IMG/VR virus record: IMGVR_UViG_3300024346_000007 | Length of the DNA stretch: 64,000 bases | DNA from: a virus | Strand: one strand, 5' to 3' | Notes under the pieces: generated by a model | Told to the model about the DNA's origin: nothing | Seen by the model: only the letters and a program-made list of their open reading frames with translations | Database searches by the model: none | Part shown: positions 44,541-64,000 of the stretch, piece after piece | How the letters are laid out: each line of letters begins with the position of its first letter | Numbering within the stretch: position 1 is the first letter of the stretch | Made by a program: the position numbers and the translations under genes

Positions 44541-44741
44541 TTAATTACTAGGCGGTGCCACGTATGGATAAGGCAATGGCCACCCTTCTGGGGTTACATA
44601 GGGGCTGTCTTCGCTTACTATAGGCATTGTCATTATAGACGTACTTGGTGCATATGACATAGTATACAACAAGTACAATATTATCATTGCTACAAATATA
44701 CGAATAACACTTTTACTATTAATTGTTATTGTGTGTTTCAT
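44541..44741 (-). CDS. Small membrane protein with Pro-rich tail
   Basis: One TM helix; fills the gap between neighbours. Confidence 0.4.
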   Translation of the reverse strand: MKHTITINSKSVIRIFVAMIILYLLYTMSYAPSTSIMTMPIVSEDSPYVTPEGWPLPYPYVAPPSN

Positions 44742-44750
44742 TATTTTATA

Positions 44751-45667: not shown

Positions 45668-48600
45668 TTAGGCTGTTTCTCCATGTTTAACTGCCACCCA
45701 ACTAGTACTTCCTGCTAATGCTGTATTACTATTTGCATTTATCACGAAAGATCCTGCTATTTTACTTTCTAAAGTCCATGATCTAGCATCCTCTCCTGTT
45801 ATAGCCACTGAGTAGTTTGCATCTGTAAACGCTGCTGCGAAAGTAACTGTGGCTTTCTTAGGGTTACCAGTGAAAGAACTGTTAGCTACCGATCCTGCTT
45901 TTGTGGCTAGTCCTCCACCAGACCCACCAGTTGCACTGATAGATGCTGTTGTATTGGTTACAGTAGCTGTTATATTGGTAGCAAACTCTAGATAGGTAAT
46001 ACCTGTGCCTTGTATAACACCGCCGTCAGCTACTGTCAAAGATATAGTAGAACCTGAAGATCCTGATGATCCAGTAGATCCTGAGGAACCAGATGATCCA
46101 GTAGATCCGGTAGACCCTGAAGATCCTGTTGAACCTGAGCTGCCTGAAGAACCTCTGCTACCTGAACTACCGCTTGATCCGCTAGTTCCTGAAGAACCAT
46201 TTTGACCAGATGATCCAGAGCTGCCTGCACTTCCTGATGTACCTGTTGATCCAGCGCTACCAGAAGTACCAGAAGAGCCGTTCTGTCCTGAGCTACCTGA
46301 TGATCCACTACTTCCTGAAGTTCCTGAAGAACCGTTTTGACCGCTAGAGCCAGATGTTCCGGAGGAACCATTCTGTCCTGAGCTACCTGAAGTTCCAGAA
46401 GACCCGTTCTGGCCACTTGACCCACTAGTACCAGAACTACCGTTTTGACCACTAGAGCCAGATGTTCCGGAGGAACCGTTTTGTCCAGAAGAACCGCTGC
46501 TTCCAGATGTACCGGTAGAACCTGATGAACCTGTTGAACCGGAACTTCCGCTTGATCCTCTACTACCTGAACTACCGCTTGATCCTGATGTACCAGTTGA
46601 TCCTGAGGAGCCTGATGTGCCTGAGGAACCATTCTGTCCTGAAGAGCCTGAAGAACCACTAGAACCAGTAGATCCTGAAGTTCCAGTAAAGCCAGATGTA
46701 CCAGAACTACCATTTTGACCACTAGATCCACTGCTTCCGGATGAGCCACTTGTACCAGTAGAACCAGATGTTCCAGAAGAACCGTTTTGTCCCGATGATC
46801 CACTAGAACCAGAAGTACCCGTAGAACCGGATGTACCAGAAGAACCGTTTTGACCACTAGATCCAGAGCTACCGCTAGTACCTGTACTTCCAGATGTGCC
46901 TGAACTACCATTTTGACCACTGGATCCAGATGATCCTGCACTACCACTAGTTCCTGTACTGCCTGAAGTACCTGAAGATCCATTCTGTCCTGAGCTACCA
47001 GATGATCCACTTGACCCACTAGTACCTGTAGAACCTGAGGTTCCTGAGCTACCGTTTTGTCCAGATGATCCGCTTGATCCTGAAGATCCTGAACTACCAT
47101 TTTGTCCTGAGCTGCCTGAGGAACCAGACGTACCAGAAGAACCTGCTGCACCTGCTGTATTATAAAAGAACTGTCCAGTAGCTGAGTCAACTACTACGAA
47201 TCGAGTTAATCCTGAATTTAAAGCTAAGTCTTTTACAGCTATAGAGCCAGTAATCTTTACACTACCTGTAAACTCATGATTATCTAATAAAGAATCTCCG
47301 AATACATTAGACCCACTAGAGTATAAAACTGATGAGCTTATAGTCTGAACTACTATAGTCTGGGCTGTTAAGGTTCCTCTTACTGTAAAGTTATCTGCAG
47401 AAGATGCTGTAAGAGCGTTTATAGCCCAACTAGCAGTCCCTGATAAAGATCCTGTAATAGATCCTAATACGTTTATGCTGCCTGTTACAACAACAGATCC
47501 TGTTATTATAGCAGACCCTGTTAATAATAATGTATCTACATTTGAAGAAAATAGTGTAGTTCCACTAGCACCAGATACACTTAAGGAACCTGTTATAATT
47601 GTACTACCTGACACACTTACTGCACCATTATTTACAACTAGGATAGCTGAAGCTGTGGCTGCATTATTAGAAGCATCTGCTACTAACACTCTTCCTATAG
47701 CTGGGTTACTTATTGTATTAAAGCCTGTACCAGATGATCCACTAGTGCCACCAGTTCCAGAGGAACCAGATGTGCCTGTTGAACCGCTAGAACCAGAAGT
47801 ACCTGTACTACCTGAAGATCCAGACGTACCTGTAGAGCCGCTAGAGCCTGAGGTACCGGAGCTTCCAGAAGAACCACTGCTTCCAGCTGTGCCAGAGCTT
47901 CCTGACGTGCCTGTAGAGCCGCTAGAGCCTGAGGTACCGCTTGTACCTGATGATCCAGTACTTCCAGAGGTTCCAGTGCTGCCTGAAGTACCTGAGGAAC
48001 CGTTTGCACCGCTAGACCCTGAAGAGCCAGATGATCCAGTAGATCCTGAAGTTCCAGTAGAGCCAGAGCTACCTGATGTTCCGGAACTACCACTAGTTCC
48101 TGTAGAGCCCGATGTACCTGTTGATCCAGATGTACCAGTTGAACCGCTGCTACCTGAGGAACCATTTTGACCAGAGGATCCACTACTTCCAGATGTACCT
48201 GTTGAACCACTAGATCCTGAGGTACCTGTGCTACCTGAAGAACCTGTTGAGCCAGATGAACCAGAAGTACCTGTAGAGCCTGATGTTCCACTAGTTCCTG
48301 TAGAACCACTACTACCAGTTGACCCACTTGATCCAGAAGAGCCTCTGGTTCCTGATGACCCAGAAGAGCCGGAAGTTCCCGATGTTCCTGTAGAACCGGA
48401 AGTACCGCTTGTTCCAGATGTGCCAGATGTAGCTGCTGTATATGAAGTTCCGTTTATTACTAAAGATCCAGATATTGATACTGAACCAGTAAATTCGTGA
48501 GTGTTTTGTACTACCGTACCAAAATGAGTAGATCCAGTTACGAATTCTACAGAAGCAGTAATAGTTTGAACTATTAAAGTTTGAGCTGTTAGGGTTCCCC

Positions 48601-51600
48601 TTACAGTAAAGTTATCTGCTGAAGATGCAGTAAACGCATTTAAAGCCCAACTTGCAGTACCTTGTAAAGATCCTGTAATAGACGGGGATATAATAGAAGA
48701 GGCGCTAACCTGTGCTACATTGTATATGTTATTTCCTCCTAGTCCTAAGTTACCAGACATTTGTCTAGTACCATTTACTAGAAGATACTGAGTGTGGTCG
48801 TCAGCACCTAACCCTAATAGGTTTCCGTGAGTGGCAGAGGCGTTAACTCCAGCAGCTCTAAAACCAATAATAGGTCTAATATCTTGTATCTCTATTATAT
48901 TAGCTGAACCTGATCTTACATAGATAGAGGCTAGAGATACGACACCATCACTAAAATATGTTGGAGGAGTAGGCAATGCTGCACCTTCAGCTTCTACTAA
49001 TGAATTGTACTGTGTTTGTCCTACAACTAAGAAGTATTCTTCATCAACACCATCCCCTACAAGATATAAAGTATGTTTAGTGTAAGCTGATGAGGATAGA
49101 GGAACTAAAACGTCACTTCCAGAATCAAAGGTATTAGAAGTTACAGTTGTGGTTTGAGATCTATTCCACCCTGATCCGCTTCTATAGTATTGTGTAAAGT
49201 TTATAGATCCTGTACCAGCTGGAGTGAAGTTATTTTCTGAGAAGAAGTAGCTACCTTGTGTTACGTCTAATTTAAAAGGAGTAACATTTTCAGATACTAT
49301 AGATCCATCAGCAAATACAGGTCCTAGGGCGTCTCTATTAAACTTAGATAGTTTATTAGACATGTGAGCCCCATCATATGGACTCTGATCAATAAATTCT
49401 ACCCCAGTAGCATTTGTTACTACTCTTCCTAATATAATGTTTTGTGTACTATTAGGAGCAGAACCTGCTGCTGATAATATACCACTCTCATCAAGATAGA
49501 TGTAATTATTTGTATTTGGAGATAGAGTTAATGTGCTATTAACCCAATCTACTCTTTGGTATACATCAGGGTTTATTGAATTTTCTAAGTAGCCAAATCC
49601 AGCTGCAGTGTTAATTGTTAAACTACCAGAAATAGTAATTTGACCCCCTTCCATTACACCCATTGAACTACCCTTAAAGATAAGGGTTGTAGCGTCTGTA
49701 TGAGTACCATCTGCAAATGTTACAGATAATTTTCTTGTGATATCATTTTCACCGTCAGCATCATCTAAGAAGTTCCAATAGAAATCTTCACTTGCATTAT
49801 TAATTTTAGAATGATCTGATACTCCTTGGTATCTACCTCTTGTAGTTGCATTTAATATATTAAAATCATAAGTAGTAGAGTCGTGTATCATTGATCCCAC
49901 TACTCTAAAGTTAGGACCTATTCCTACATTAGGTACTACATATCCATAATCCCAATCTTGAATATCAATAGCAGCTCCTTCTAATTGAGCTCCATTTTCT
50001 AATTTAACTGCTGTTGAATCAGTTGTACCGTCTCCAAGGAACTTAGATGTATATAAACTTAGGCTAGAGCTAGGACCTGTTACAAAGTTACCTATAGTAG
50101 CACTTGCTGAAGGGAATAGGTAGTAGTTTTCTACAGTAGTAGATACAGAACCCCCATTACTAGAGGAAATATAAGTTCCATAAGTAAAAGTACCGTTTAT
50201 ATCAACATATTCTCCATAGAATTGAGTGTCAGTAGTGTTTGCTAAAACAGTTATACCTCTATCACAATCGTAAATTGATATTTTATGTACCTGAGCAAAA
50301 TCACCAATATCATCAACATATATTGCTGAGTATCCTGATCCTGCATTTGCTAAGCTCAAAAATGATACTTCATTATTGATGCCCATCTTAATGATGTGCT
50401 GGGTAGAACTGCTTGGGAATATCTGTGTAGTTTGAATGTTACTACCAACAATACTTACATATGGTCTACCAGTTAAGTCAATTGTATTTTCTGTGTATTG
50501 GCCAGGACCAACTTCAATTACATAGCGATTATTCTCGTTTGACCCACTAATCCAAGCTACAGATGCACTGATTGAGGTGAAATCTCCTCCTTTTTTAGCT
50601 ACAAACAATCTTCTTGGATCTTGTCCTACTTCATATAAAGGCGCATCTGTGGGGATAATGGTTTTTAAGAAGTTATCTGTACCTTGTACTTTACCTGTAG
50701 ATCCTGTATGTTCTATTAATACGTCTGTTGTACAGTTTTCAAAGTTAAGTGCAATTGCATCTATACTTGGTGCTGATCCGGTTTGTGGAGCCCATATACC
50801 ATTTATCCACCTTTGGAAGTTAACACCTGTTAAACGAAGCTGTCCCCCGTTATATACTTTAAATCCAGTACCTCTAGCAGTTCCTGTCGATCTTGTTAGC
50901 AAACATCCATTAACAATGAATGTACAACCAGGAGCGTCTGCTAAAGCAAATATTTGGTTGTTGTCACTTCCTGCTACACCACCATTTGTAGAAGTGACGT
51001 TTCTCAATTGCATCCTACCAATACCTCCGCTTGAACCAGAAGTTACATGGAATCCTACATCAAATGATTTTAATAAGCCTGCGTCTGTGTATCCTCCGTA
51101 TTTAACGTTAGAACATTGTAATATACAGTTTCCACTACTTCCGCTACCAATTACTTTAGCGTTTGTATAGTTAGTTCCAAAGCGAACGTTCTCTACGTAA
51201 GCAATTGCATTTCTTTGAGGGGTTGTAGCAGAAGAGTACACTACCGCAGAAGATCCTGTAAAAGTAGTTCCTTGAATCTGCATGTCTATGACCATAGATT
51301 GGTCACTCATTACAAAGATACTTGAACTAGGGTTAGAGGCAGAAACTACAGTTGATATAGAACTGTCTCCTTTAATTGCTACCCAAGAAGGAACAGTAAT
51401 AGTATCTTCTATGTATATTCCAGGAGCTACACTTACTGTGTAAGTATTGTTCTCAGAAGCATCTGTGATGCTAGATATGGCAGTCTTAATAGCGTTATAC
51501 CTAACTCCTCTACTTCCAGAAAGTCCTACGTTGACTATATTTTTTGTGAAAGTAAGATCATTGATAGTACTATACTCTACTGTACTACTAGCTGTGTTGT

Positions 51601-52822
51601 ACGTAAGTACATTTATGCTAGATGTATTATAAGTAGGAGTTGATAGTTTTAAAGACCCTGTTATATTAATAGATCCTACTAATTGATAAGATCCGGTAAG
51701 TTGTTTAGAATTAGTCCAAACACTTCCGCTTTTAACGAGCAGATCACCGTATGATGATGTAGTTGTCGTGTCTATTAAATCGTGGAGCTCGCCTAATTCG
51801 TAACCGTTATCGATTTTTATGTATATTGATCCTAAAGTAGCATTTACTCTCTCAACAAAACCTAAGATAACAGTGTGATTAGGAGCAATTGGTCTAGTTT
51901 GAGTATATTGTCCTGCAGAACCGCTTAGATATATAGCTCTACCAGCTATTAATCCAGATGTATTTATTTTTCTTAAAGATCCTTCTGTTTGTATCCATCC
52001 TTCAGCTCCAGCTGATATTGGTTCTGCTACAAATCCTAAAGTATTAGCTGATCCTTGTTCAGCAACTGCTGAAGCTAATTTAACAGCTACTCTGTTGCCT
52101 TGTGATCCTGAAATATATACTACTTGTCCTTTTGTTAAAGGATTTCCTGTACTGTTGTAAGCGTATTGGTATAGATCTTCACCTATATTTGCAATAACAT
52201 TTCCTCCAGCTAATCCAAGTTGTAGAGTACCTTCTCCAGAATCATACTTTAATCTTCCCACAGCATCCACTACAGATGCCGTAGTATCAAATTGTATATA
52301 ATCTACATCTGTTAATCCTCCAGATATAATCATATTAACAGCATAAGAAGCTGTTAGAGAGGTTGTTGCAAAGCTAGAAGATACTGCATATGATGATGTT
52401 ATAGCATTTAGAGCCCAACTTGCGGTTCCAAATAGGCTACCAGTTATGCTTGGTGCGTTTAAACTACCAGTTATAGCTACTGATCCGGATACATCTAAGG
52501 TGGCGCTTAAGGGCCCTTCCTTGCCTATACCTACTAAAGATTGAGATACATATAGTGCTTGTTTACCATACTGGCCAATTCTGACAGTATTATCTGAGAA
52601 GGCTTCTATTACGGGTAATCCAGCGGCTGTATTGACGGAAAATAGAGATCCTGATAGAGAATCATCGACTGAGAAGAGACGGCCTGAAGTGCCGTCAACA
52701 GTAAATACATTAGATCCTGAAGCATTGATTGCTAAAGATCCTGAAATAGCTGAAGAGCCTGTTATATTAGCCCCTCCTTGGTCTACTATGACCCCGTTTT
52801 TTATCCGAAATTCTTGTGGCAT
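45668..52822 (-). CDS. Giant tail fibre / tailspike (2384 aa) with two putative right-handed beta-helix domains and two collagen-like Gly-Ser/Thr repeat tracts
   Basis: Pectin-lyase-like starts YNAIKTAI...V.PGIYIE and GGDFTSI...V.PGQYTE; HGNL.GL.ADDHTQY fibre motif; G-X-Y tracts. Confidence 0.8.
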   Translation of the reverse strand: MPQEFRIKNGVIVDQGGANITGSSAISGSLAINASGSNVFTVDGTSGRLFSVDDSLSGSLFSVNTAAGLPVIEAFSDNTVRIGQYGKQALYVSQSLVGIGKEGPLSATLDVSGSVAITGSLNAPSITGSLFGTASWALNAITSSYAVSSSFATTSLTASYAVNMIISGGLTDVDYIQFDTTASVVDAVGRLKYDSGEGTLQLGLAGGNVIANIGEDLYQYAYNSTGNPLTKGQVVYISGSQGNRVAVKLASAVAEQGSANTLGFVAEPISAGAEGWIQTEGSLRKINTSGLIAGRAIYLSGSAGQYTQTRPIAPNHTVILGFVERVNATLGSIYIKIDNGYELGELHDLIDTTTTSSYGDLLVKSGSVWTNSKQLTGSYQLVGSINITGSLKLSTPTYNTSSINVLTYNTASSTVEYSTINDLTFTKNIVNVGLSGSRGVRYNAIKTAISSITDASENNTYTVSVAPGIYIEDTITVPSWVAIKGDSSISTVVSASNPSSSIFVMSDQSMVIDMQIQGTTFTGSSAVVYSSATTPQRNAIAYVENVRFGTNYTNAKVIGSGSSGNCILQCSNVKYGGYTDAGLLKSFDVGFHVTSGSSGGIGRMQLRNVTSTNGGVAGSDNNQIFALADAPGCTFIVNGCLLTRSTGTARGTGFKVYNGGQLRLTGVNFQRWINGIWAPQTGSAPSIDAIALNFENCTTDVLIEHTGSTGKVQGTDNFLKTIIPTDAPLYEVGQDPRRLFVAKKGGDFTSISASVAWISGSNENNRYVIEVGPGQYTENTIDLTGRPYVSIVGSNIQTTQIFPSSSTQHIIKMGINNEVSFLSLANAGSGYSAIYVDDIGDFAQVHKISIYDCDRGITVLANTTDTQFYGEYVDINGTFTYGTYISSSNGGSVSTTVENYYLFPSASATIGNFVTGPSSSLSLYTSKFLGDGTTDSTAVKLENGAQLEGAAIDIQDWDYGYVVPNVGIGPNFRVVGSMIHDSTTYDFNILNATTRGRYQGVSDHSKINNASEDFYWNFLDDADGENDITRKLSVTFADGTHTDATTLIFKGSSMGVMEGGQITISGSLTINTAAGFGYLENSINPDVYQRVDWVNSTLTLSPNTNNYIYLDESGILSAAGSAPNSTQNIILGRVVTNATGVEFIDQSPYDGAHMSNKLSKFNRDALGPVFADGSIVSENVTPFKLDVTQGSYFFSENNFTPAGTGSINFTQYYRSGSGWNRSQTTTVTSNTFDSGSDVLVPLSSSAYTKHTLYLVGDGVDEEYFLVVGQTQYNSLVEAEGAALPTPPTYFSDGVVSLASIYVRSGSANIIEIQDIRPIIGFRAAGVNASATHGNLLGLGADDHTQYLLVNGTRQMSGNLGLGGNNIYNVAQVSASSIISPSITGSLQGTASWALNAFTASSADNFTVRGTLTAQTLIVQTITASVEFVTGSTHFGTVVQNTHEFTGSVSISGSLVINGTSYTAATSGTSGTSGTSGSTGTSGTSGSSGSSGTRGSSGSSGSTGSSGSTGTSGTSGSTGTSGSSGSTGSSGSTGTSGSSGSTGTSGSSGSSGQNGSSGSSGSTGTSGSTGTSGSTGTSGSSGTSGSSGSTGTSGSTGSSGSSGSSGANGSSGTSGSTGTSGSTGSSGTSGTSGSSGSTGTSGSSGTAGSSGSSGSSGTSGSSGSTGTSGSSGSTGTSGSSGSTGTSGSSGTGGTSGSSGTGFNTISNPAIGRVLVADASNNAATASAILVVNNGAVSVSGSTIITGSLSVSGASGTTLFSSNVDTLLLTGSAIITGSVVVTGSINVLGSITGSLSGTASWAINALTASSADNFTVRGTLTAQTIVVQTISSSVLYSSGSNVFGDSLLDNHEFTGSVKITGSIAVKDLALNSGLTRFVVVDSATGQFFYNTAGAAGSSGTSGSSGSSGQNGSSGSSGSSGSSGQNGSSGTSGSTGTSGSSGSSGSSGQNGSSGTSGSTGTSGSAGSSGSSGQNGSSGTSGSTGTSGSSGSSGQNGSSGTSGSTGTSGSSGSSGQNGSSGTSGSTGTSGSSGSSGSSGQNGSSGTSGFTGTSGSTGSSGSSGSSGQNGSSGTSGSSGSTGTSGSSGSSGSRGSSGSSGSTGSSGSTGTSGSSGSSGQNGSSGTSGSSGQNGSSGTSGSSGQNGSSGTSGSSGQNGSSGTSGSSGQNGSSGTSGSSGSSGSSGQNGSSGTSGSAGSTGTSGSAGSSGSSGQNGSSGTSGSSGSSGSRGSSGSSGSTGSSGSTGSTGSSGSSGSTGSSGSSGSTISLTVADGGVIQGTGITYLEFATNITATVTNTTASISATGGSGGGLATKAGSVANSSFTGNPKKATVTFAAAFTDANYSVAITGEDARSWTLESKIAGSFVINANSNTALAGSTSWVAVKHGETA
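46046..47152 (-). repeat. Coding Gly-X-Y repeat (~123 triplets: GSS/GTS/GST/GQN)
   Basis: Gly at every third residue, no Pro; 9-nt period with synonymous variation. Confidence 0.9.
47729..48430 (-). repeat. Coding Gly-X-Y repeat (~78 triplets)
   Basis: TSGTSG...SSG tract in the 2384-aa fibre. Confidence 0.9.
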
Positions 52823-52871
52823 ATGTATTTACTGTTTTCACTATCCGACAGTCCTATATAAATATAGAGAT

Positions 52872-53132: not shown

Positions 53133-53135
53133 AAT

Positions 53136-54562: not shown

Positions 54563-54624
54563 ATTTTATCTTTTATATAAATATGTAGATTTTGTATTTT
54601 ACCGTTTGCGTATTGTGTTGCCAT
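54544..54624 (-). pseudogene. Orphaned 5' end of a LamG gene (MATQYANGKI) running into the endonuclease insertion
   Basis: GTTATG start 4 nt after the upstream stop; the first 10 codons parallel MSTQYAFGRI at 53810. Confidence 0.65.
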
Positions 54625-54628
54625 AACT

Positions 54629-55345: not shown

Positions 55346-55347
55346 AG

Positions 55348-56034: not shown

Positions 56035-56046
56035 ACTTTTTATTTT

Positions 56047-56811
56047 TTATAGTCCGAATCTTGATTTTTGTGCGTTGTAGTTTTGTAACATCTCTGCGTC
56101 TGTTAAACCTCTATTATATACCTTAATATTATAAAGTCTCCCTGGATAAGAGGGGCTTCTGTCGTTATAAAAACTACCTAATGTGACAGGTAGTGATCCA
56201 AATGATAATGTGTTGGTGGTATTTACCCCAGAGTTTACTTTTTCCACTGTGTTTTCAAATACTTGTCTTCTAGGAAATTCAGAGGTTCTACATCTAAAAG
56301 TCATAATAGTTATTTTATTTAGTATATTAGATCCATATGAAACTCTTTGAGTAGGTAGACAACACCCAGCTACATCGTAATATACTACGCTATCTGACCA
56401 TGGAGTATGTCCGCTTATAGTTCTTGTTCCTGCAGCATCTGTCCAATGAAACAATGTACATGCTTTTGCTACAGTTGGCTGTATTATGACTTCTACTGTG
56501 TGCTCTTGATCCAGATTAAAAGCATTTGATGCTGGCCCTTCCATATAATCATCTATGCCATCAAAAGAAAAGTATCCTCCACTATTCCAAGACACAGAGT
56601 TGTTTAGCGTAAAATTTCTACTACCCCCACTTAAATCAGTCCAAGTAGTTCCGCTACCAGGGTAACTTAATACATTACCAGCATCTAAATTTAATACTAA
56701 TCCTTCTGTTACAATAGTAGATAATGATGACATACTAAGTCCACCACTATTATTTCTATTAATAAGTGATATATTACCTGAGTTATTTCTATTTAAAAAC
56801 GTTATTGGCAT
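56047..56811 (-). CDS. LamG/concanavalin-like virion protein, paralog 1; likely start MPITF at 56811
   Basis: TAATG stop/start overlap with the upstream fibre gene; conserved motifs. Confidence 0.8.
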   Translation of the reverse strand: MPITFLNRNNSGNISLINRNNSGGLSMSSLSTIVTEGLVLNLDAGNVLSYPGSGTTWTDLSGGSRNFTLNNSVSWNSGGYFSFDGIDDYMEGPASNAFNLDQEHTVEVIIQPTVAKACTLFHWTDAAGTRTISGHTPWSDSVVYYDVAGCCLPTQRVSYGSNILNKITIMTFRCRTSEFPRRQVFENTVEKVNSGVNTTNTLSFGSLPVTLGSFYNDRSPSYPGRLYNIKVYNRGLTDAEMLQNYNAQKSRFGL

Positions 56812-59800
56812 TATAATAAGTTTGCTAATGCTTTTACTGTCCAACCTCCAGAAGAAGATGCATTAAGTAGAACATTACCGTTAGATAGTCCAACACTCAT
56901 GTACACTAGTGATGTATTTCCTATATCAGTAGTTGTCACTTCGGTATATCTTACTGTACTTCCACTCCATATTGACATTATTTGTCCTGATCTGGCATTT
57001 GAAGCAGACATTATATAATAATTGTAAAATGCTGATTTGAATGATCCTGTAGGGATTATAGATACGGCTGTTGTTCCTGCTGCTGTTGTAGAGGAAGTTG
57101 AATTGAATTCGGCTATGCCTATATCAAATGAAGAGTTTGCGTATGATGCTGTTGCAGCATATGATGCGCTTATCGCATTTAGTGAGTATGATGATGTTAT
57201 TGCGTTTTCTGCCCAGCTTGCAGTGCCGAATAGAGAACCTGTGAATGAAGCTGCAGTCACACTACTACTAAACGTGGCTGCACCTGTGGTATTGGCAATA
57301 TTAAGAACAACTGCTGCTGCTGAATGATTATAAAATTGCAAATCTGTATTAGACCCTATAGCCGAACTACCAACATACCAATTACTTGTCCCAGATGTTT
57401 GTAATATTATTCCATTTGCATCTCCCCCTGCTGCTCTGTTTAATGTCAACCCACCACTAAACCTACCCGTACCATTAACTTGTAGTTGTTCTCCAGTGTC
57501 ACCAGTTTGATTTATTAATAACCTGTTATTAGCAGTAAGAGTCATTGCTTGGGTGAAGGTGATAGCATTGCCTATCGTGCCGATTGGGGCAGTTAACCAT
57601 TGGTGTGCATTTTGAACTATTTGATAATTACCTGCTGAACCATTTGAGCTATATTTCCAACCTGAATTATAATATCCATTGTTAACTAAAATAGTTGCTC
57701 CACCATCTGGTAAACCATAAAATGAACCTAACCCACTTTGATAAACTTTTTGACCATTATCCCACGCACTCGGTGTAACACCTAAGCCGAGATTACCAGT
57801 AGAGGTAATGCGCACCTTTTCAGTATTATTTGTATAGATTGTAAAATCGTGATTAGTTTCAGTACCTATTAAAGCACTAGCTGCTATTTGTAGCTTTGCA
57901 ATTACAGTACCATTAGTAGTTTGAATTTGTGGATTTGTACCATCTTTAACTGTAATACCCGGTATTGACCCACTTTGAACTACTTCTAATTTTGATGATG
58001 GGTTTGTAGTACCTATACCAATATTTCCTGTTGAATGTTGGAATGTTAAAAAGAAAGAAGCTAAAGCATCAGAATACCAGTTCATGGATGTTGTATCAAC
58101 AGCCATTTCCATTCTTTTGGCTCCAGCATTATCAAGAAAATGCATATTAGCTCCGTTAGTGTCAGAAGCTCTAGATTTAAGATAACCCAAATGATTAATA
58201 CTAATAAATTCTTTACCACCAGATCCTTTAAATATAAAAGCGTCTCCTGAAGTTGATACTATATTTAGTAAAGCATTTGGAGTTGTAGTACCTATACCAA
58301 TATTACTTGATGATTGGTACATTACACTGCTACTTAAACTAGTTGCTCCACTCCATAGTGGTATATAGTTTGTAGCACCTCCTAATACATTTGAAGCAGT
58401 AGCAACAGACATTGATCCTGTCTGATTAGACAATACAACACTGCTGTTATTTACAGATAAACTCCCTGATATAGTTACGCTACCAGTAAATTCGTGTGTA
58501 TTTGATATTATACTACCGAAATGAGTAGACCCAGTCACAAATTCTACGCTAGACGTGATAGTTTGTACTATAAGAGTCTGTGCTGTTATTGTATTTGATA
58601 CTGTCAGTGAGCCAGTGATGAACGCACTGCCAGACATACTCACCGCTCCGTTATTAACGGTTAGGATAGCTGATGCTGTGGCTGCATTTAAAGTACCGTC
58701 AGATATTAAGACTCTGCCTATAGCAGCATTGCTTATAGTATTAAACCCTGTACCGCTACTTCCTGAAGTTCCTGATGTTCCAGAAGATCCGGCTGAGCCA
58801 GAAGTACCAGAAGAGCCGGATGTACCTGTACTACCTGAGGAACCAGACGTTCCGCTAGATCCTGCACTTCCAGAAGTACCTGAGCTGCCACTAGTGCCTG
58901 AGCTTCCTGCTGAACCTGATGTACCAGTAGATCCACTAGATCCTGAGCTTCCACTTGTACCTGTGCTACCTGATGATCCCGATGTGCCACTTGACCCACT
59001 AGATCCTGAAGTACCGGTAGATCCAGAAGAACCGGATGTTCCGCTTGTACCAGATGATCCAGAGGTACCTGTGCTACCGGAACTTCCACTAGTTCCAGAT
59101 GTTCCTGCACTTCCAGAAGACCCTGAGGTTCCAGAAGAGCCAGATGTACCTGTTGACCCAGAAGATCCTGAAGTTCCTGTTGAACCACTGCTGCCAGAAG
59201 TGCCTGAAGAGCCACTACTACCAGAGCTGCCGCTAGTACCTGTTGATCCAGATGAACCAGATGTACCAGAACTACCACTAGTACCTGTAGAACCAGATGA
59301 ACCAGAGGTTCCGGAAGTGCCTGAAGATCCTGCTGTACCAGATGTACCACTAGTTCCTGATGTGGCTGCAGTGTATGATGTACCGTTGATTACTAAGGAT
59401 CCAGATATTGATAAAGATCCAGTAAATTCATGTGTATTTTGGATGATGGTTCCAAAATGAGTAGACCCTGTTACAAACTCTACAGAAGATGTAATAGTTT
59501 GAACTACTATAGTCTGTGCTGTAAGCGTGCCTCTAACAAGGAAATTGTCTGCTGAAGATGCTGTAACAGCGTGTGATGCGCTTATTACACTGTTTTGTCC
59601 ATAAGGTCCGTAAACATTAGAGGCTGTTATATAAGAAGCAGTTAAAGCGTTCTCTGCCCAACTAGAAGTCCCTTGTAGCGAACCTGTGAATCCGTTTGTA
59701 GCTGATAGAGATCCGGTTAAGGAGTGTACGTCATTTGGTCTTAGTGTTAACTTAGCTCCTAATTCACCGTCAAAGTCTTCTCTAGTCCAGAAAATTAAAC

Positions 59801-61214
59801 TACCGCTAGTAGCACTACCTATGTAGTGGTTTCTACCCGTAGAAAATTGATATGAATCACTAGGCCCACCAACACCAAACGATGGATCAAATATGTGATT
59901 ACTACTGTTGATACCCATATCAACGTAGTTATCAGTTTCAGTTCCTATATCATTTGTAGCTACTATATCAGCAGATGCATATGATCCAGTACCTAAGTTT
60001 ATTATGTTTAACTGTAAATAACTTTCATTTATTATACCCTTTCCTATTATTAAGTTAGAAAAAGAACCTGACGGGCCTACTCCTGTAATTACCAAAGGTT
60101 CTACTAATAATGATTCTGGATTTGATGGGTTATTATCACTAGCGTTAATTCCTACGGTACCGTCTGCAGTTATGTACACACGAGCGTTGGCTACTGCTGA
60201 TCCCGTACCATTAAATATAATAACCCTTTTGCCTTCAGCAGCATTTCCTATCAATAGGTCTTCTGCAATAGAGTATAAATAAGCATCATTTTGACTGCCT
60301 ATTCCATCTTCTATATTATAGCCGTCTCCATTGATACCCATATTAACATAGTAGCTTTCTTCATCACCTATGTTACTGGTTGCTACTATGTCAGAAGATC
60401 CGGTAACTCCAGAATTAATATTTTTTATATTAATCTGGGAGTAATTATTTACATCCCCTTGTGCATATATTAAGTTATATGAACTAGTAGTTGCTGCGAA
60501 TACTCTTAGAGACGATGGATTATCATAATCTATAGTATCTGTATTAAATCCTATGGTACCCTGTTCGTGTATAAACACTCTAGCGTTAACAAAGGCATCA
60601 AAGCCTCCGTTAAATATTATTACCCTTTTACCAGCAGAAGCATTACCTAGATATAGATCATTACCAGTAGAGTACATATATGCATCTCCTGCAGAACCTA
60701 CGAAGTCTGGGGATGTGTATCCGCTACTGTTGATACCCATGTCAATATATCTGACAGTCTCGTTCCCATTATCTGCAGTAGCTACTATGTCAGAAGAAGC
60801 AAAAGCCCCTGCACTGTAGTTTTGTACATTTACTTGTACATAGTTATTAAGCCTACCATGTGCAGATATAAGATTGTAAGTATTTACACCATCTCCGTTT
60901 ACAAATAGTATATCTGGATTTGTTGGATTTACAGGAACTGTAGTTTTCCTTATAGATGTAAAAGATCCAGATTGGTATATTGAACTGGTTACTATATTAT
61001 TAGGACCTGAGAATACAGGTATATGGTATATAGATCCGGAAACATTTGCAGAATTGGCCCCTATTTCTATTACACTATCTCCTCCGCTACCGCTAACCTT
61101 CATAAACAGCTTACCATCAGCTGTGTTCATTGCTACTTCACCAAATTCTATTTGGGATATAGTAGGCTTAGCGCCAGATATAGCGCTCCTTCGGAGTTTG
61201 AGTATTTGGGCCAT
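56811..61214 (-). CDS. Large tail fibre (1467 aa) with Mtd-N-like N-terminus, three DMGIN modules and a collagen-like tract
   Basis: ILKLRR....P.....GEVAMNTADGKLF; GNIGIGTT.P repeats; G-X-Y tract. Confidence 0.8.
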   Translation of the reverse strand: MAQILKLRRSAISGAKPTISQIEFGEVAMNTADGKLFMKVSGSGGDSVIEIGANSANVSGSIYHIPVFSGPNNIVTSSIYQSGSFTSIRKTTVPVNPTNPDILFVNGDGVNTYNLISAHGRLNNYVQVNVQNYSAGAFASSDIVATADNGNETVRYIDMGINSSGYTSPDFVGSAGDAYMYSTGNDLYLGNASAGKRVIIFNGGFDAFVNARVFIHEQGTIGFNTDTIDYDNPSSLRVFAATTSSYNLIYAQGDVNNYSQINIKNINSGVTGSSDIVATSNIGDEESYYVNMGINGDGYNIEDGIGSQNDAYLYSIAEDLLIGNAAEGKRVIIFNGTGSAVANARVYITADGTVGINASDNNPSNPESLLVEPLVITGVGPSGSFSNLIIGKGIINESYLQLNIINLGTGSYASADIVATNDIGTETDNYVDMGINSSNHIFDPSFGVGGPSDSYQFSTGRNHYIGSATSGSLIFWTREDFDGELGAKLTLRPNDVHSLTGSLSATNGFTGSLQGTSSWAENALTASYITASNVYGPYGQNSVISASHAVTASSADNFLVRGTLTAQTIVVQTITSSVEFVTGSTHFGTIIQNTHEFTGSLSISGSLVINGTSYTAATSGTSGTSGTAGSSGTSGTSGSSGSTGTSGSSGTSGSSGSTGTSGSSGSSGSSGTSGSSGSTGTSGSSGSTGTSGSSGTSGSSGSAGTSGTSGSSGSTGTSGSSGTSGTSGSSGSTGTSGSSGSSGTSGSSGSTGTSGSSGSSGSTGTSGSAGSSGTSGSSGTSGSAGSSGTSGSSGSTGTSGSSGTSGSAGSSGTSGTSGSSGTGFNTISNAAIGRVLISDGTLNAATASAILTVNNGAVSMSGSAFITGSLTVSNTITAQTLIVQTITSSVEFVTGSTHFGSIISNTHEFTGSVTISGSLSVNNSSVVLSNQTGSMSVATASNVLGGATNYIPLWSGATSLSSSVMYQSSSNIGIGTTTPNALLNIVSTSGDAFIFKGSGGKEFISINHLGYLKSRASDTNGANMHFLDNAGAKRMEMAVDTTSMNWYSDALASFFLTFQHSTGNIGIGTTNPSSKLEVVQSGSIPGITVKDGTNPQIQTTNGTVIAKLQIAASALIGTETNHDFTIYTNNTEKVRITSTGNLGLGVTPSAWDNGQKVYQSGLGSFYGLPDGGATILVNNGYYNSGWKYSSNGSAGNYQIVQNAHQWLTAPIGTIGNAITFTQAMTLTANNRLLINQTGDTGEQLQVNGTGRFSGGLTLNRAAGGDANGIILQTSGTSNWYVGSSAIGSNTDLQFYNHSAAAVVLNIANTTGAATFSSSVTAASFTGSLFGTASWAENAITSSYSLNAISASYAATASYANSSFDIGIAEFNSTSSTTAAGTTAVSIIPTGSFKSAFYNYYIMSASNARSGQIMSIWSGSTVRYTEVTTTDIGNTSLVYMSVGLSNGNVLLNASSSGGWTVKALANLL
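58752..59363 (-). repeat. Coding Gly-X-Y repeat (~68 triplets)
   Basis: GSS/GTS/GST/GSA tract with no Pro. Confidence 0.9.
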
Positions 61215-61271
61215 ATGTATGAGTCTCTAAGTGTATTTACACGCAGCTTTCGCTGGCCTATATAGGCGTAT

Positions 61272-61279
61272 ATAAATAT
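61272..61279 (-). promoter_or_regulatory. Putative phage late-promoter motif ATATTTAT (one of ~16 copies)
   Basis: Same motif (or its TATTTAT core) also at 10187, 18885, 23835, 33330, 34380, 35920, 35940, 36574, 37121, 39419, 40722, 41113, 44526, 52858 and 54577, each shortly upstream of a start codon. Confidence 0.6.
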
Positions 61280-61308
61280 GAATAAAAACTCTATATTTCA
61301 GGATAGAC

Positions 61309-63390
61309 CTACAGTAGATTGGATATTTTTGAGATTACATCCTCTGCAGTGATTGTTTTGGTGCATTCGAACTGCCGATCTGTTCCTTTATGCTTAGGAC
61401 ACCAGTTCCAATCTCCTGGATCTAGCTTCTCTTTATTAAAACAGAATCTACAAACAGACTCTTTTGGTGATATCCTTACTGTTGGAGTAAAATCTGACTC
61501 AGGCTTGGTTATCCCTGATATTAGACATGTGTTAGTTCCTAAAGCCCAAGCCAACCAGCTTAGTCCGCTACTTATTCCAATGAACATTTCTGATGTTAAT
61601 ACCTCACTTATTACTGATTCTAAGCTGCTATCTAGTAGATGTGTCACTCCTTTAGGATATTTATTTCCCATGTAGCCATCTTCTTCTTTAGATACCATTA
61701 CAACCTCATACTTGTTCTCCAGTAGGTAGTCTACTAACTTCTGCCACCCCGTCTCATTGTTCCAATACTTACATTGTGCTGTAGAATGCATAGCAATAGT
61801 AACTTTTCTTTCTTTTGATCCTATTTTAGGTAGCTTTATCTTTGGCTTTACCTCTTTAAACTCTAATCCCAATATATCTGAGGCTGTCTTTTGTAGTGAT
61901 TGGTCTCTAAAGTTTTCAGGAACCTTTCTAAAATCAAAAGACCCGTCTGGGGTGTAGAACCAGCCTAAAGTATACATGGCATATATATTATTCACCACTT
62001 CCCCAGGTTTAACAAACTCAATCTCTGGATACTCTGGCTTGAAGAAATGATTCCAAAAAGTAGAACAAACTACCTTACAGTTGTGTTTTTTTCTAAACTC
62101 TTCTACATATGGAAACCAAGCTAGAGTATCACCTAGTGCTTTTGAGTCTAAAGCTATATACACTCTCTTACCGGTATAGTCTGGCTTAAACTCATATGAA
62201 CTTAGGCCATCGTCTACAAATATACTCCAATCTACAAAATATGAGATTGATGCCTTTACCCAATGATCCTTTTTTATATTGGATTTATGGACTATTTGTC
62301 CAGTTTTTTTGTTTATAAACTGGACATTGTACTCCCTGTCGGGTCCTCCTAATATCTCAAAAAAAGCACCATCTATAAAATTCATATTGAACACAGGACT
62401 AAGAGGCTTAGATTTTACTCCTATAATTTTAGTATTATTGTAGCTATCTATTAATTGTTTTTTAAAACTCATTGTGTAATGTTTTAACAGTTCTTTTGTT
62501 CTATTTTCCCATGATAGATCTTTAGCTTGCATTCTTGCAGTATTTGAATAATACAAATACCTAGTGGGGTTGGCAAATACTTCCTCTATTGCTTTAACTG
62601 TTTGGTCTACATCTCTACCCACCACTATCATACCATCCAGACTATTACCATCTTCATACGTACCCACTACTGGCAAACCTGATGCCATTGCCTCCAGTAG
62701 AGTTAGATTCGGGTGTCCAGCTTCTAAAGTGGATAAGTGTAAGAAGCAACTATGCTCTTTATATAAGTCTTTCAATTGATCCTCTGTTAGATCATATAGA
62801 ATTGTTAGCTTCTCATAGTCAGAAGGGTATTTTTCAAAGTATCTCTTGTTGTTACTGGGCCCAGCTATGGTTATAGGTAGGTTTAACCTCTTAGCAGCTT
62901 CTATGGCATACCCAAAACCCTTCCTATCCTCCGCTTGATCGTGTATAAACCCATTATTTGCTACGCATAATAGCTTTGGTTCGCTAGTTCCACTAGGAGT
63001 GAAGTAGTCTATGTTTACTCCATGAGAAAAATACTCCGGTATGTTTCCAAAATAACCGACCAAGAATTTAGCGGGGACGAATGCTTTTTTGGCATTTTTG
63101 ATTGCAAGCATGTTTTCTTTGAACACTGCTGAATCTTTCCCATATAGATACGCATGGTGGTCATGCATTGTAAAGTAATATGGAATACCTCTCTCATGTG
63201 CAATGTTTGCTAGATTAGCAACATGAATATGCACCACATCACAGTCTTTTACATCATCTAAGTATTCTATTGTAGAATTATGCCCTAGTTTTAACAAGGC
63301 ATTATGAGTTTCCCATATTATTTTTTCCACAGCTCCCCAACCATTAGGAGGGATTGGTATTAATCCTGGAGTGACGTTTATTATCTTCAT
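61309..63390 (-). CDS. GT4 glycosyltransferase fused to an autotransporter O-heptosyltransferase (TibC/AAH, BAHT family)-like domain
   Basis: N-terminal PPNGWGAVE...EAGHP.LTLLEAMASGLPVV; C-terminal ALGDTLAWFPY, KYWNN..GW, FIGISSGLSWLAWA, iron-finger CRFCFN...WCPKHKGTDRQFECTK. Confidence 0.85.
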   Translation of the reverse strand: MKIINVTPGLIPIPPNGWGAVEKIIWETHNALLKLGHNSTIEYLDDVKDCDVVHIHVANLANIAHERGIPYYFTMHDHHAYLYGKDSAVFKENMLAIKNAKKAFVPAKFLVGYFGNIPEYFSHGVNIDYFTPSGTSEPKLLCVANNGFIHDQAEDRKGFGYAIEAAKRLNLPITIAGPSNNKRYFEKYPSDYEKLTILYDLTEDQLKDLYKEHSCFLHLSTLEAGHPNLTLLEAMASGLPVVGTYEDGNSLDGMIVVGRDVDQTVKAIEEVFANPTRYLYYSNTARMQAKDLSWENRTKELLKHYTMSFKKQLIDSYNNTKIIGVKSKPLSPVFNMNFIDGAFFEILGGPDREYNVQFINKKTGQIVHKSNIKKDHWVKASISYFVDWSIFVDDGLSSYEFKPDYTGKRVYIALDSKALGDTLAWFPYVEEFRKKHNCKVVCSTFWNHFFKPEYPEIEFVKPGEVVNNIYAMYTLGWFYTPDGSFDFRKVPENFRDQSLQKTASDILGLEFKEVKPKIKLPKIGSKERKVTIAMHSTAQCKYWNNETGWQKLVDYLLENKYEVVMVSKEEDGYMGNKYPKGVTHLLDSSLESVISEVLTSEMFIGISSGLSWLAWALGTNTCLISGITKPESDFTPTVRISPKESVCRFCFNKEKLDPGDWNWCPKHKGTDRQFECTKTITAEDVISKISNLL

Positions 63391-64000
63391 CTTTTCTTAG
63401 CGTATATAAATCCTACAGTATCTTCTTTGGTAGAGTTTCTGTACTCAACAAAGTAATTATTGTTTATTAGAGTGCTTTCTATATCTTTTGGATTATTATG
63501 AAACTCTATAAACATTTGATCTATTTTATCAAATTCATTTGCTGTTAACTTTTCTATTACATCAAACTCAGCCCCTTCTATATCTAATTTTAACAGATTT
63601 ATTCTATTTTCTATTTTAAGTATACTATTAATTGTCACAGACTCCACCAATACAGATTGTTTATTTTCATAGTTTGTATACTTGCTTATAGCACTTCCTA
63701 CTGATGCGCCTATGCATATATCAAAACTTACAGGCTGTTCTGTATCGTTTAATACTTTGTTTAAGAGTATGATTCCGGGATCAAAACCATAGTTTTTTTC
63801 TAAATAAAAAAAAGGCATTGGATCAGGTTCTATGCTGTAAATTCTTTTTGATCCATGTTTTTTGCAATATAAAGTAAAGAATCCTACATTAGCTCCAGCA
63901 TCTATAACCGTTCCAGAAGTATCTATGTTCTTACACAGATCTCCATAAAAAAAATCTACGTAAGAAGGGCCAGTAACATCAAATTCTGGAGTTGCGTACA
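63387..64000 (-). CDS. FkbM family methyltransferase; ORF extends past the right edge
   Basis: Frame is open upstream of 63818 to the window end, giving VIDAGANVGFF and YSIEPDP; LLKLDIEGAE and IEFH downstream. Confidence 0.85.
   Translation of the reverse strand, partial: YATPEFDVTGPSYVDFFYGDLCKNIDTSGTVIDAGANVGFFTLYCKKHGSKRIYSIEPDPMPFFYLEKNYGFDPGIILLNKVLNDTEQPVSFDICIGASVGSAISKYTNYENKQSVLVESVTINSILKIENRINLLKLDIEGAEFDVIEKLTANEFDKIDQMFIEFHNNPKDIESTLINNNYFVEYRNSTKEDTVGFIYAKKR

Follow-up and report, generated by a model that had tools for sequence, protein, structure and literature searches.

A block of genes in the 64,000-nucleotide stretch of DNA analyzed here (the window), which comes from an environmental T4-like myovirus, probably forms a module for the O-glycosylation of virion fibers, a reading to which we assign a probability of roughly 0.65. 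Judged from the sequence, the phage most likely sugar-coats its own fibers, because just before two fiber genes rich in Ser/Thr triplets it encodes a relative of TibC, which glycosylates adhesins in E. coli, as a fusion with a GT4 glycosyltransferase domain. All of the genes considered, from the FkbM methyltransferase to the GT8-like block, are on the minus strand (Table 1). They lie in the late structural module beside the tail sheath and tail tube genes, and the downstream end of the block, made up of a Maf-like/methyltransferase fusion and the GT8-like gene, is just upstream of the tail sheath gene. A megablast search with the 40-64 kb region against isolated phages gave no match.

Table 1. 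Positions in the window of the features of the proposed fiber glycosylation block
Feature	Position	Strand	Basis
FkbM-family methyltransferase gene, 5' end cut by window edge	63387..64000 (ORF 63387-63998)	-	TIGR01444, PF05050
GT4 domain (GT-B, retaining-type) of the fusion protein, residues 1-302	62485..63390	-	Pfam, fold, invariant Glu
BAHT (TibC/Aah-like) part of the fusion, residues 333-693	61309..62394	-	TIGR04414, phmmer, Foldseek, conserved residues
ATATTTATATA promoter-like motif	61268..61281	-	57 nt upstream of fiber gene 1
Fiber gene 1 (P0003, 1467 aa)	56811..61214	-	Pfam Collagen; tract 58746-59357
Four small LamG/concanavalin-like paralogues, split by homing endonuclease gene	53136..56844 (56047-56844, 55348-56034, 54629-55345, 53136-53810)	-	PF13385, PHROGs
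GIY-YIG/NUMOD homing endonuclease gene	53807-54562	-	PF01541, PF07460, PF22083, phrog_314
Fiber gene 2 (P0004, 2384 aa)	45668..52822	-	Pfam Collagen; tracts 47723-48424, 46046-47152
Two Ser/Thr-rich ORFs (44751-45665, 43189-44520)	43189..45665	-	composition, 22-23 % Ser/Thr
Maf-like (DUF115/MptE-like) and SAM methyltransferase fusion	41827..43158	-	PF01973, PF13489, PDB 5MU5
GT8-like glycosyltransferase gene	41121..41837	-	PF01501, phrog_28018

The ORF at 61309-63390 encodes a 693-residue protein that, by sequence and predicted structure, is a genuine member of the BAHT family fused to a GT4 domain. A preliminary description of this DNA had recognized a TibC/AAH signature in the fusion and quoted a four-Cys iron finger, and both were borne out. 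The NCBIfam model TIGR04414 (hepto_Aah_TibC; cut-off 200 bits) scored 275.4 bits, its positions 25-373 of 374 aligning with residues 350-691, and phmmer aligned residues 337-690 with TibC (4RAP) at E 6e-50. In the AF2 model (mean pLDDT 86), two domains are joined by a low-confidence linker at residues 308-326, and the best Foldseek matches were the TibC chains (4RAP and 4RB4), with a target-normalized TM of 0.81-0.82 (0.82 to 4RAP) and about 380 of 381-390 residues aligned. The modeled BAHT domain holds the parts of the TibC protomer, namely the beta-barrel, the GT-B core, a thumb formed by a beta-hairpin, and the four-Cys iron finger. Cysteines C647, C650, C664, and C676, putative Fe ligands here, align with TibC C339, C342, C358, and C370 and are kept in 77-78 of the 79 phage-type rows of the family tree described below. 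The equivalent of the catalytic base Asp110 of TibC is D421 (78 of 79 rows), while the donor phosphate-binding Thr226 and Lys230 correspond to T537 (Thr in 73 rows and Ser in six more) and K541 (79 of 79), and the heptose-contacting Trp305 to W612 (79 of 79), the roles being those assigned in TibC (PMC4358343). V593 replaces TibC Arg286. At the positions of F265 and V266, a hydrophobic pair on the thumb's tip, and of F368, all needed for the TibC dodecamer (PMC4358343), the fusion has Y573-M574 and F674, and the Tyr/Met pair is nearly invariant in the phage clade.

The GT4 part was matched by Pfam Glycos_transf_1, Glyco_trans_1_4, and Glyco_trans_1_2 over residues 153-302, all above the gathering scores (PF13692, 41.9 bits against a cut-off of 27; PF00534, 39 bits against 26.4), and its predicted fold resembles the GT4 enzymes MshA, BshA, and PimA and a methylmannose-polysaccharide mannosyltransferase (Foldseek E 1e-10 to 1e-12). 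Residues E223 and E233, which flank an invariant AGHPNLT, are invariant in 41 homologues; they are spaced E-x9-E, whereas the motif of retaining GT4 enzymes is E-x7-E. The FkbM gene said to precede the fusion is there, although cut by the window end (TIGR01444, 90.8 bits against a cut-off of 37.7; PF05050, 60 bits). Its stop overlaps the start of the GT4-BAHT gene by 4 nt, and the two genes appear to be translationally coupled; a 79 % identical relative (L004) served as a proxy for the DNA upstream of it.

The preliminary description had confined the system to the fusion enzyme and FkbM, which stand as described, but the system is larger. The Maf-like/methyltransferase fusion matched PF01973 (74 bits, cut-off 34.6) and PF13489 (44 bits), as well as PDB 5MU5, which we take to be the Magnetospirillum Maf structure, over residues 40-192 (E 3.7e-6), and is by sequence a candidate second protein O-glycosyltransferase. 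The GT8-like gene matched PF01501 (29.8 bits, cut-off 24.3) and phrog_28018 (E 5e-40), and an 81 % identical homologue flanks the BAHT-fiber cassette in another phage locus (L007). A second island of about ten glycosyl- and methyltransferase genes lies away from the fibers, at 800-9959.

The fiber proteins carry 269 Gly-X-Y triplets, against an earlier estimate of about 270: a single unbroken tract of 68 in P0003 and unbroken tracts of 78 and 123, in the order of Table 1, in P0004. Ser or Thr fills almost every X and Y position, some being Gln, Asn, or Ala, and Pro is absent, which is atypical of collagen. Pfam Collagen (PF01391) scored 95 bits for P0003 and 264.6 bits for P0004, so that the tracts are collagen-like in sequence and a triple helix is putative. 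The fibers as a whole are 29-32 % Ser/Thr and have conserved Ser-rich 'GSLxGTASWAxNAxTAS' segments outside the tracts, and the N-terminal 50 residues of P0003 match phage proteins annotated as tail fiber or collagen-like minor tail protein. The enzyme gene is directly upstream of the fibers, as had been described, but the two fiber genes are not next to each other; between them are four small LamG-like genes, a small ORF, and the homing endonuclease gene. PF13385 was found on two of the four LamG-like paralogues (55348-56034 and 54629-55345), and the PHROG matches of all four were to phrog_24074 and phrog_8510, 'virion structural protein'. The two Ser/Thr-rich ORFs had no match in Pfam, PHROG, or NCBIfam. 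Both fiber genes carry a late-gene promoter-like motif: the one upstream of fiber gene 1 is found again at 52857-52864, ahead of fiber gene 2, and also precedes other late genes, among them those of the tail tube and the baseplate region. Of the 18 matches to TATAAATA, 16 read TATTTATA on the coding (minus) strand, and 12 of these 16 have a start codon no more than 70 nt downstream; as a raw count, 18 is no excess over the 12.4 expected from shuffling.

A tree of 107 BAHT domain rows split cleanly (SH-aLRT 100) into a classical bacterial clade of 28 rows and a clade of 79 phage-type rows that holds all of the viral ones. The earlier notion that a phage had repurposed an autotransporter-modifying enzyme is misleading, as the sequences place the phage enzymes in an old, separate branch rather than make them a recent loan. 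At E ≤ 1e-10 this branch takes in over 5,700 metagenomic proteins, it counts at least 497 loci in IMG/VR, and it also occurs in bacterial genomes: in records of a bacterial genome collection, for the most part MAG contigs (Methylococcales, Burkholderiales), small Pfam-confirmed collagen-like proteins, some of them little more than a Ser/Thr Gly-X-Y tract, adjoin phage-type BAHT genes. Among the phage-type rows, counting BAHT-anchored ones only, a Ser/Thr collagen-like ORF lies within 10 kb in 33 of 65 and no more than 150 bp away in 17 of 65, usually on the strand of the BAHT gene, compared with 0 of 28 classical rows (Fisher p 2.5e-7 for 33/65 against 0/28, a value that overstates independence because tree rows are related). 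As controls, 79 helicase-anchored phage loci (1.02 Mb) contained neither a collagen-like ORF nor a BAHT. In the classical branch, the known BAHT substrates are indeed encoded next door, AIDA-repeat adhesins (PF16168) being directly downstream of the enzyme at four loci (L263, L286, L266, and L317); AIDA repeats were seen only beside these four classical-branch enzymes tested, and the phage enzyme here adjoins collagen-like fibers instead. In other phages, GT4, BAHT, and FkbM also occur in one polypeptide, as GT4+BAHT+FkbM (L081) and GT25-like+GT4+BAHT+FkbM (L068), which backs a joint pathway; a further fusion is methyltransferase+GT4+BAHT (L148).

The pairing is recurrent, not obligatory. It recurs in many unrelated phages, but in roughly half of the phage-type rows, an entire subclade of 12 clusters among them, a collagen-like ORF is absent within 10 kb, and BAHT was found in the flanks of only 19 of 78 Ser/Thr-collagen loci. 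The large ORF neighboring BAHT in the collagen-less phage subclade has tracts of only 4-7 triplets. We rejected the idea that Ser/Thr-collagen fibers always come with a cis-encoded glycosyltransferase, as BAHT-less flanks showed no glycosyltransferase enrichment: those of 47 such loci held mostly Gp23, 2OG-Fe(II) oxygenases, and PhoH, with no glycosyltransferase family among the 25 commonest. Sheath-anchored loci are uninformative as a same-neighborhood 2x2 test, because their 10-kb flanks end before the position of BAHT, which is 22 kb from the sheath gene here.

The caution in the preliminary description that the donor may not be heptose is justified, because Arg286 is replaced and the ADP-heptose genes searched for were not found: there was no HldE homologue in the window, no match to the GmhA and HldE-adenylyltransferase profiles on the two large contigs (G001 and G002) of a relative, and no GmhA in five related phage records. 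In TibC, Arg286 contacts adenine N1 and is a determinant of ADP specificity (PMC4358343); the residue is Arg in 28 of 28 classical rows and in 6 of 79 phage-type rows, and the other phage-type rows have Val, Thr, Ile, or Ala there. Directly after BAHT, however, 22 related phage loci have split HldE-like genes for a kinase and an adenylyltransferase, among related phage records only in a standalone-BAHT subclade. This subclade also has Val at the Arg286 position, so loss of the Arg need not exclude ADP-heptose, and we rejected the Arg-to-Val change as proof of a non-ADP donor. For some of the phage branch at least, the HldE linkage points to ADP-heptose as the donor.

In the scheme that we infer for the acceptor, the sugar, the order of the enzymes, and the benefit to the phage, the soluble GT4-BAHT enzyme would, late in infection, place a sugar, by homology heptose from ADP-heptose, on Ser and possibly Thr hydroxyls of the two fibers encoded downstream, the most likely acceptor being the 269 proline-free Gly-Ser/Thr-Ser/Thr triplets. 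A second sugar would come from the fused GT4 domain, and the FkbM enzyme would O-methylate the glycan, with further decoration probably by the Maf-like/methyltransferase fusion and the GT8-like enzyme. Prolines and charges normally hold collagen-like helices together, and the glycan coat would stabilize or protect a rod that is without them. A bolder version, which we offer tentatively and think rather doubtful, is that the phage-type BAHT is a dedicated 'collagen glycosylase', in which a ring like the TibC dodecamer would thread nascent Gly-Ser/Thr-Ser/Thr chains or the triple helix and heptosylate them processively, and the dense methyl-capped glycan would replace hydroxyproline in the folding and stability of the proline-free triple helix.

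Among known systems, TibC-TibA and Aah-AIDA-I of E. coli (TIGR04414; PDB 4RAP/4RB4; PMC4358343) share with the phage BAHT the fold and domain set, the catalytic Asp, the phosphate-binding Thr/Lys, and the heptose-contacting Trp, and in both cases the enzyme gene directly precedes a long, Ser-rich, repetitive surface protein presumed to be the hyper-glycosylated substrate. The phage enzyme differs in its separate branch (SH-aLRT 100), its Val for Arg286 and putative donor, its phage origin, its fusion to GT4 with FkbM alongside, and its neighbor, a Gly-Ser/Thr-Ser/Thr collagen-like fiber rather than an AIDA-repeat beta-helical autotransporter. Mycobacteriophages encode glycosyltransferases that decorate their own virion proteins (Freeman et al. 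2023, PMC10527164, as cited in PMC12619734); what we infer here is experimental there, but, as that work is cited, the enzyme families are others, the C-terminal ends of capsid and tail-tube subunits serve as acceptors, and the hosts are actinobacterial.

Sugars on collagen-like filaments have precedents: the Gly-Pro-Thr repeats of BclA in the Bacillus anthracis exosporium carry O-linked oligosaccharides, and Mimivirus collagen is modified by L230. Both are triple-helical surface filaments whose repeat hydroxyl residues carry sugars, some of them methylated, but they use other glycosyltransferases and no known BAHT, on Pro-containing GPT repeats or hydroxylysine rather than Pro-free Gly-Ser/Thr-Ser/Thr. 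Maf enzymes O-glycosylate Ser/Thr of flagellin, another bacterial filament protein. The phage Maf-like domain (PF01973/DUF115) differs from them in its fusion to a SAM methyltransferase and its place beside fiber genes, and the window showed no genes of the nonulosonic-acid pathway.

The acceptor could instead be on the virion but outside the collagen-like tracts, in other fiber parts (a possible beta-helix or the Ser-rich segments), the LamG-like proteins, or the two Ser/Thr-rich ORFs, which we consider unlikely. That TibC and other classical BAHTs act on the loops of a folded beta-helix, not on a triple helix (PMC4358343), counts against the collagen tracts, and the overall Ser/Thr content of the fibers with its conserved motifs beyond the tracts, the short tracts of the collagen-less subclade, and an ESM Atlas lead from residues 420-1000 of P0004 to Beta_helix clusters (weak, at rank 22 only) are in line with such an acceptor. 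For the putative beta-helices of the preliminary description, however, a PDB sequence search with P0004 gave no match and the single-sequence AF2 model used for this check (pLDDT 38) was unusable, and the feature that goes along with the phage-type BAHT in phages and bacteria is the Ser/Thr Gly-X-Y tract as such, including the small bacterial proteins that consist of little else.

Coating of the phage's own fibers also has to be weighed against targets other than the virion. It is well known that phage glycosyltransferases can change the serotype of the host (reviewed in PMC12619734), and the GT4-BAHT, FkbM, Maf-like, and GT8 enzymes, together with the second island, might modify LPS, capsule, or surface proteins of the host envelope during infection, in which case the purpose could be a superinfection block or a receptor change, and the proximity to fibers could reflect a shared hypervariable region. 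The weak matches of the BAHT C-lobe to LPS heptosyltransferases (PF01075, 23.9 bits; TIGR02193) and the transferase genes of the second island, away from the fibers, fit this proposal, but the TIGR04414 match is far stronger than that to any LPS enzyme, the collagen-like genes are close by in the 17 rows noted above, and the beta-barrel, thumb, and iron finger, reported to contribute to protein-substrate recognition in TibC (PMC4358343), are all present; we regard it as improbable. Glycosylation of phage DNA or another non-protein target, as by the T4 glucosyltransferases, is suggested by a T4-like phage with many glycosyltransferases and by the virus-encoded glycosyltransferases that hypermodify DNA (as cited in PMC12619734). 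It seems very remote to us, as the gene is in the late structural block and not in the replication module at 13-23 kb, and such a target would not account for the pairing with collagen-like genes. We know of no DNA glycosyltransferase with the BAHT architecture.

To our knowledge, the only described role of BAHT enzymes has been the virulence-associated modification of autotransporter adhesins in Proteobacteria. Our literature search found no published report of a phage BAHT paired with a collagen-like fiber and no paper linking an O-heptosyltransferase with tail fibers or phages, and the combination of heptosyltransferase and collagen-like returned a single, irrelevant paper. A collagen-paired sister branch of the size found here would give the BAHT family a new substrate class, would take phage virion glycosylation past the mycobacteriophages and into the abundant myoviruses of aquatic habitats, and would offer a way to explain stable fibers built from proline-free Gly-Ser-Ser 'collagens'. 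Receptor-binding fibers with a glycan coat would matter for host range, for how well the phage resists proteases and grazers, and for phage engineering. If the phage-type BAHT is indeed a 'collagen glycosylase', sugar-dependent collagen-like fibers would be a widespread, unrecognized principle of aquatic phage virions, shared by some bacterial surface proteins.

The protein P0001 (693 aa) consists of two domains. Residues ~1-302 matched the Pfam 'group 1' GT-B profiles with scores over the gathering thresholds, and residues 350-691 scored 275.4 bits (cut-off 200) on NCBIfam TIGR04414, the 'autotransporter strand-loop-strand O-heptosyltransferase' profile. The crystal-structure sequence of TibC aligned with this bacterial autotransporter heptosyltransferase (BAHT) domain at E 6e-50. 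An AlphaFold2 model built from 41 homologues had a mean pLDDT of 86, with a disordered linker at 308-326, and Foldseek ranked TibC chains at the top (TM 0.81-0.82, TibC-normalised, ~380 aligned columns); the retaining GT4 enzymes MshA, BshA, PimA and methylmannose-polysaccharide mannosyltransferase, matching the N-domain, ranked after TibC. Residues were equated to those of TibC through sequence alignment, with roles taken from PMC4358343. The catalytic base Asp110 is retained as D421, the beta-phosphate residues Thr226 and Lys230 as T537 and K541, Trp305 (heptose O4) as W612, and the iron-finger cysteines 339, 342, 358 and 370 as C647, C650, C664 and C676. The thumb tip Phe265-Val266 is Y573-M574, Pro300 (stereoselectivity) is S607, the same as in Aah, and Arg286 (adenine N1 contact) is not conserved (V593). 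The preliminary description of a GT4 domain fused to a TibC/AAH-type domain with a four-cysteine finger is thus borne out, as is the FkbM methyltransferase gene that it placed before the fusion gene; the two genes overlap by 4 nt.

That description had also given the fibre genes ~270 Ser/Thr Gly-X-Y triplets, and we counted 269, in three tracts without breaks (68, 78 and 123); its putative beta-helices were not confirmed. The X and Y positions are nearly all Ser or Thr, with some Gln, Asn and Ala and no Pro. Tract length changes fast among relatives. The 68-triplet tract of fibre 1 (58746-59357) compares with 128 triplets at the same position in the fibre gene (11175-15575) of L004, the nearest phage relative; the two phages are 79 % identical in their BAHTs and 53 % in this fibre gene. 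Residues 1-50 of fibre 1 (P0003; 61064-61214) share 42-53 % identity with the N-termini of other phage proteins, among them annotated tail fibre or collagen-like minor tail proteins of Synechococcus phages and hypothetical proteins of Vibrio and Ralstonia phages, and form a fibre attachment motif that is widely shared.

The window is part of a T4-like myovirus genome, with all predicted genes on the minus strand; megablast (40-64 kb) found no close relative among isolated phages. Between the two fibre genes, the homing endonuclease gene interrupts four LamG-like paralogues. Farther downstream, the Maf-like domain matched PDB 5MU5 (E 3.7e-6), and since Maf proteins glycosylate flagellin, this fusion is a candidate for a second protein O-glycosyltransferase. 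Phage L007, a relative, has a cassette of FkbM fusion, GT4-BAHT and collagen fibre, in that order, flanked by homologues of the GT8-like and sheath genes; the block therefore behaves like a fibre module that can be exchanged while keeping its enzymes. At the opposite end of the window, a sugar-modifying island of ~10 genes includes three GT2 genes, one GT4-like gene (Glyco_trans_1_2), another FkbM, two phrog_2170 glycosyltransferases and two class-24 methyltransferases (Methyltransf_24, one under the Pfam cut-off), and adjoins a non-specific endonuclease gene (171-803). This island could supply glycan for the fibres.

On the coding strand, the conserved motif (A/C)ATATTTATATA stands 2-69 nt before the starts of many late or structural genes; for both fibre genes, the tail tube gene and other late genes, the distance from ATATTTATATA to the start codon is 2-57 nt. 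Its placement is consistent with late co-expression of the fibre and other late genes, and it is probably the late promoter of this phage. The T4 late promoter TATAAATA would stand on the coding strand, and the motif thus differs from it.

Features of the window, with the fibre block in transcription order
Feature	Coordinates	Strand	Remarks
FkbM methyltransferase	63387 to window edge	-	TIGR01444, 90.8 bits
GT4-BAHT fusion (P0001)	61309-63390	-	
Fibre 1 (P0003)	56811-61214	-	
Three small LamG-like proteins		-	
GIY-YIG/NUMOD homing endonuclease	53807-54562	-	
Fourth LamG-like protein and small ORF		-	
Fibre 2 (P0004)	45668-52822	-	
Two ORFs		-	Ser/Thr-rich, no assigned function
Maf-like + SAM-methyltransferase fusion		-	PF01973, 74 bits
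GT8-like gene		-	
Three small ORFs		-	
Tail sheath	37133-39379	-	
Tail tube	36611-37099	-	
T4-type baseplate protein	33596-34420	-	
DNA polymerase, DnaB-like helicase, ribonucleotide reductase, UvsX-like recombinase, GroEL	11-23 kb	-	
Sugar-modifying island	800-9959	-	
Late promoter-like motif	23834, 33329, 35919-35975, 36573, 37120, 41112, 44525, 52857, 54576, 61271	+	read as TATAAATA

The expectation that BAHT-like and Ser-rich repeat genes co-occur across phage genomes held mainly in one direction. After dereplication at 90 % identity of 80 BAHT-anchored IMG/VR loci and three phage records, a collagen-like ORF of 10 or more triplets lay within 10 kb of the BAHT in 27 of 50 clusters, most of them with X/Y positions 63-100 % Ser/Thr and ~0 % Pro. 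Ten clusters have this ORF starting no more than 150 bp downstream of the BAHT, nine of them on the same strand. Control loci anchored on the helicase of the window phage (n = 79, 1.02 Mb) contained neither a collagen-like ORF nor a BAHT. The reverse association was weaker, with a BAHT in the flanks of only 19 of 78 Ser/Thr-collagen-anchored loci. The flanks of 47 BAHT-less loci showed no glycosyltransferase enrichment, their commonest families being Gp23, 2OG-Fe(II) oxygenase and PhoH. Four of 137 proteins in BAHT-less flanks (e.g. L084-L160) are 2OG-Fe(II) oxygenases (PF13640, prolyl-hydroxylase-like superfamily); the collagen-like tracts near them contain no proline. Finding a BAHT is thus a much better guide to a Ser/Thr collagen gene nearby than such a gene is to a BAHT: either the gene for the enzyme often lies in another part of the genome, or many such fibres are modified otherwise or not at all.

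A prokaryote scan with one genome per species returned two enzyme classes. The class at 34-38 % identity (Paraburkholderia, Lentisphaeria, Negativicutes and others) has a long protein next downstream, and all four tested were AIDA-repeat adhesins (PF16168, up to 410 bits). The class at 42-53 % identity (Methylococcales, Burkholderiales and others) was drawn from MAGs plus two records of isolates or long chromosomes; small Ser/Thr Gly-X-Y proteins adjoin about half of these enzymes, and all four such proteins tested matched Pfam Collagen. Ser/Thr-type collagen-like proteins of 298-534 aa lie within ~100 bp of a phage-type BAHT at L257:11163-12056, L244:7240-8229 and L259:8844-9806, and ~900 bp from one at L258:11986-13587; these loci are from Methylococcales and other bacterial genome records, one a contig of 2.67 Mb. 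A maximum-likelihood tree of 107 dereplicated BAHT domains separated a classical clade of 28 rows from a clade of 79 containing all viral rows (SH-aLRT 100). Counting only BAHT-anchored rows, against circularity, Ser/Thr collagen lay within 10 kb in 33 of 65 phage-type rows and within 150 bp in 17 of 65, compared with 0/28 at either distance in the classical branch. Because rows are mutually related, the p values for the branch difference (Fisher's test, 2.5e-7) and for adjacency against a 2 % expectation (~1e-14) are indicative only. The Arg286 position is Arg throughout the classical clade; the phage-type clade has Arg there in only 6 of 79 rows, with Val, Thr, Ile or Ala as replacements.

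The family is widespread: a word-indexed search returned >5,700 proteins at E ≤ 1e-10 on contigs up to 188 kb, the majority being GT4-BAHT fusions of 690 aa or standalone enzymes of 380 aa, and IMG/VR contains at least 497 loci. The deposited phage records with homologues are two from a 735-kb uncultured-phage assembly, a third one (636 kb) and that of Microcystis phage Mel-JY01 (PP395634.1; L001). The 1,226-aa Mel-JY01 protein (4750-8430), annotated solely as 'methyltransferase FkbM', carries a BAHT domain at its C-terminus as well as a GT4 domain. Lying 1.7 kb upstream, at 2-3049 on the + strand, is an unannotated, Ser/Thr-rich collagen-like frame of 1,016 codons and ~200 Gly-X-Y triplets, where the record places two minus-strand hypothetical CDSs.

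Other phages fuse the BAHT to GT4 and FkbM (L081, 979 aa), to GT25-like, GT4 and FkbM (L068, 1,527 aa), to SAM methyltransferase and GT4 (L148), or to SAM methyltransferase without GT4 (L074), which ties the separate FkbM gene and GT4 domain of the window to the BAHT pathway. A 12-cluster subclade of standalone BAHTs had no collagen-like ORF over the threshold; its neighbours are ORFs of 1,600-2,000 aa with tracts of only 4-7 triplets. In this subclade the BAHT is followed directly by two genes whose best NCBIfam matches are the HldE halves, heptose-1-phosphate adenylyltransferase (100.7 bits) and heptose-7-phosphate kinase (116.9 bits), both under the curated cut-offs. Such split genes directly follow the BAHT at L038:11080-12214, at L025, L029 and L043 and at 18 further loci (products of 129 and 250 aa, respectively), with a 720-aa GT4-like gene before it. 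A search of three near-complete phage records yielded no GmhA. The HldE-like neighbours are the best hint that the phage branch may still use ADP-heptose, and since the HldE-linked subclade has Val at the Arg286 position, that substitution alone is no argument for another donor. The 64-kb window contains no HldE homologue, and profiles for GmhA and the HldE adenylyltransferase domain had no match in the two contigs (87-90 kb) of a close relative; in this phage, the host would have to supply the sugar.

The best-supported reading is a virion-fibre O-glycosylation module, to which we assign a probability of roughly 65 %. The analysis shows what the enzymes are, which residues they conserve, how the genes are ordered, how the clades divide and which fusions occur; the acceptor, sugar, order of action and function we infer. 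An acceptor elsewhere in the virion seems unlikely to us, modification of the host envelope by these enzymes somewhat more so, and modification of DNA highly improbable. In a fibre module, the BAHT would initiate on fibre Ser/Thr, most likely inside the collagen-like tracts, the GT4 domain would attach a second sugar, FkbM would methylate the glycan, and the Maf-like and GT8-like enzymes may decorate it further. The glycan may stabilise a proline-free triple helix, as the analogy to BclA and other collagen-like proteins that carry sugars suggests.

Virion glycosylation is documented for mycobacteriophages (PMC10527164, as cited in PMC12619734), with enzymes and acceptors both different from those of the window phage. 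A full-text literature search found no link of BAHT or O-heptosyltransferases to phages, tail fibres or collagen-like proteins. As Mel-JY01 is a cultured phage, fibre glycosylation is testable there. We rate as new a distinct branch of a known enzyme family, with a new class of partner and in a new biological setting.
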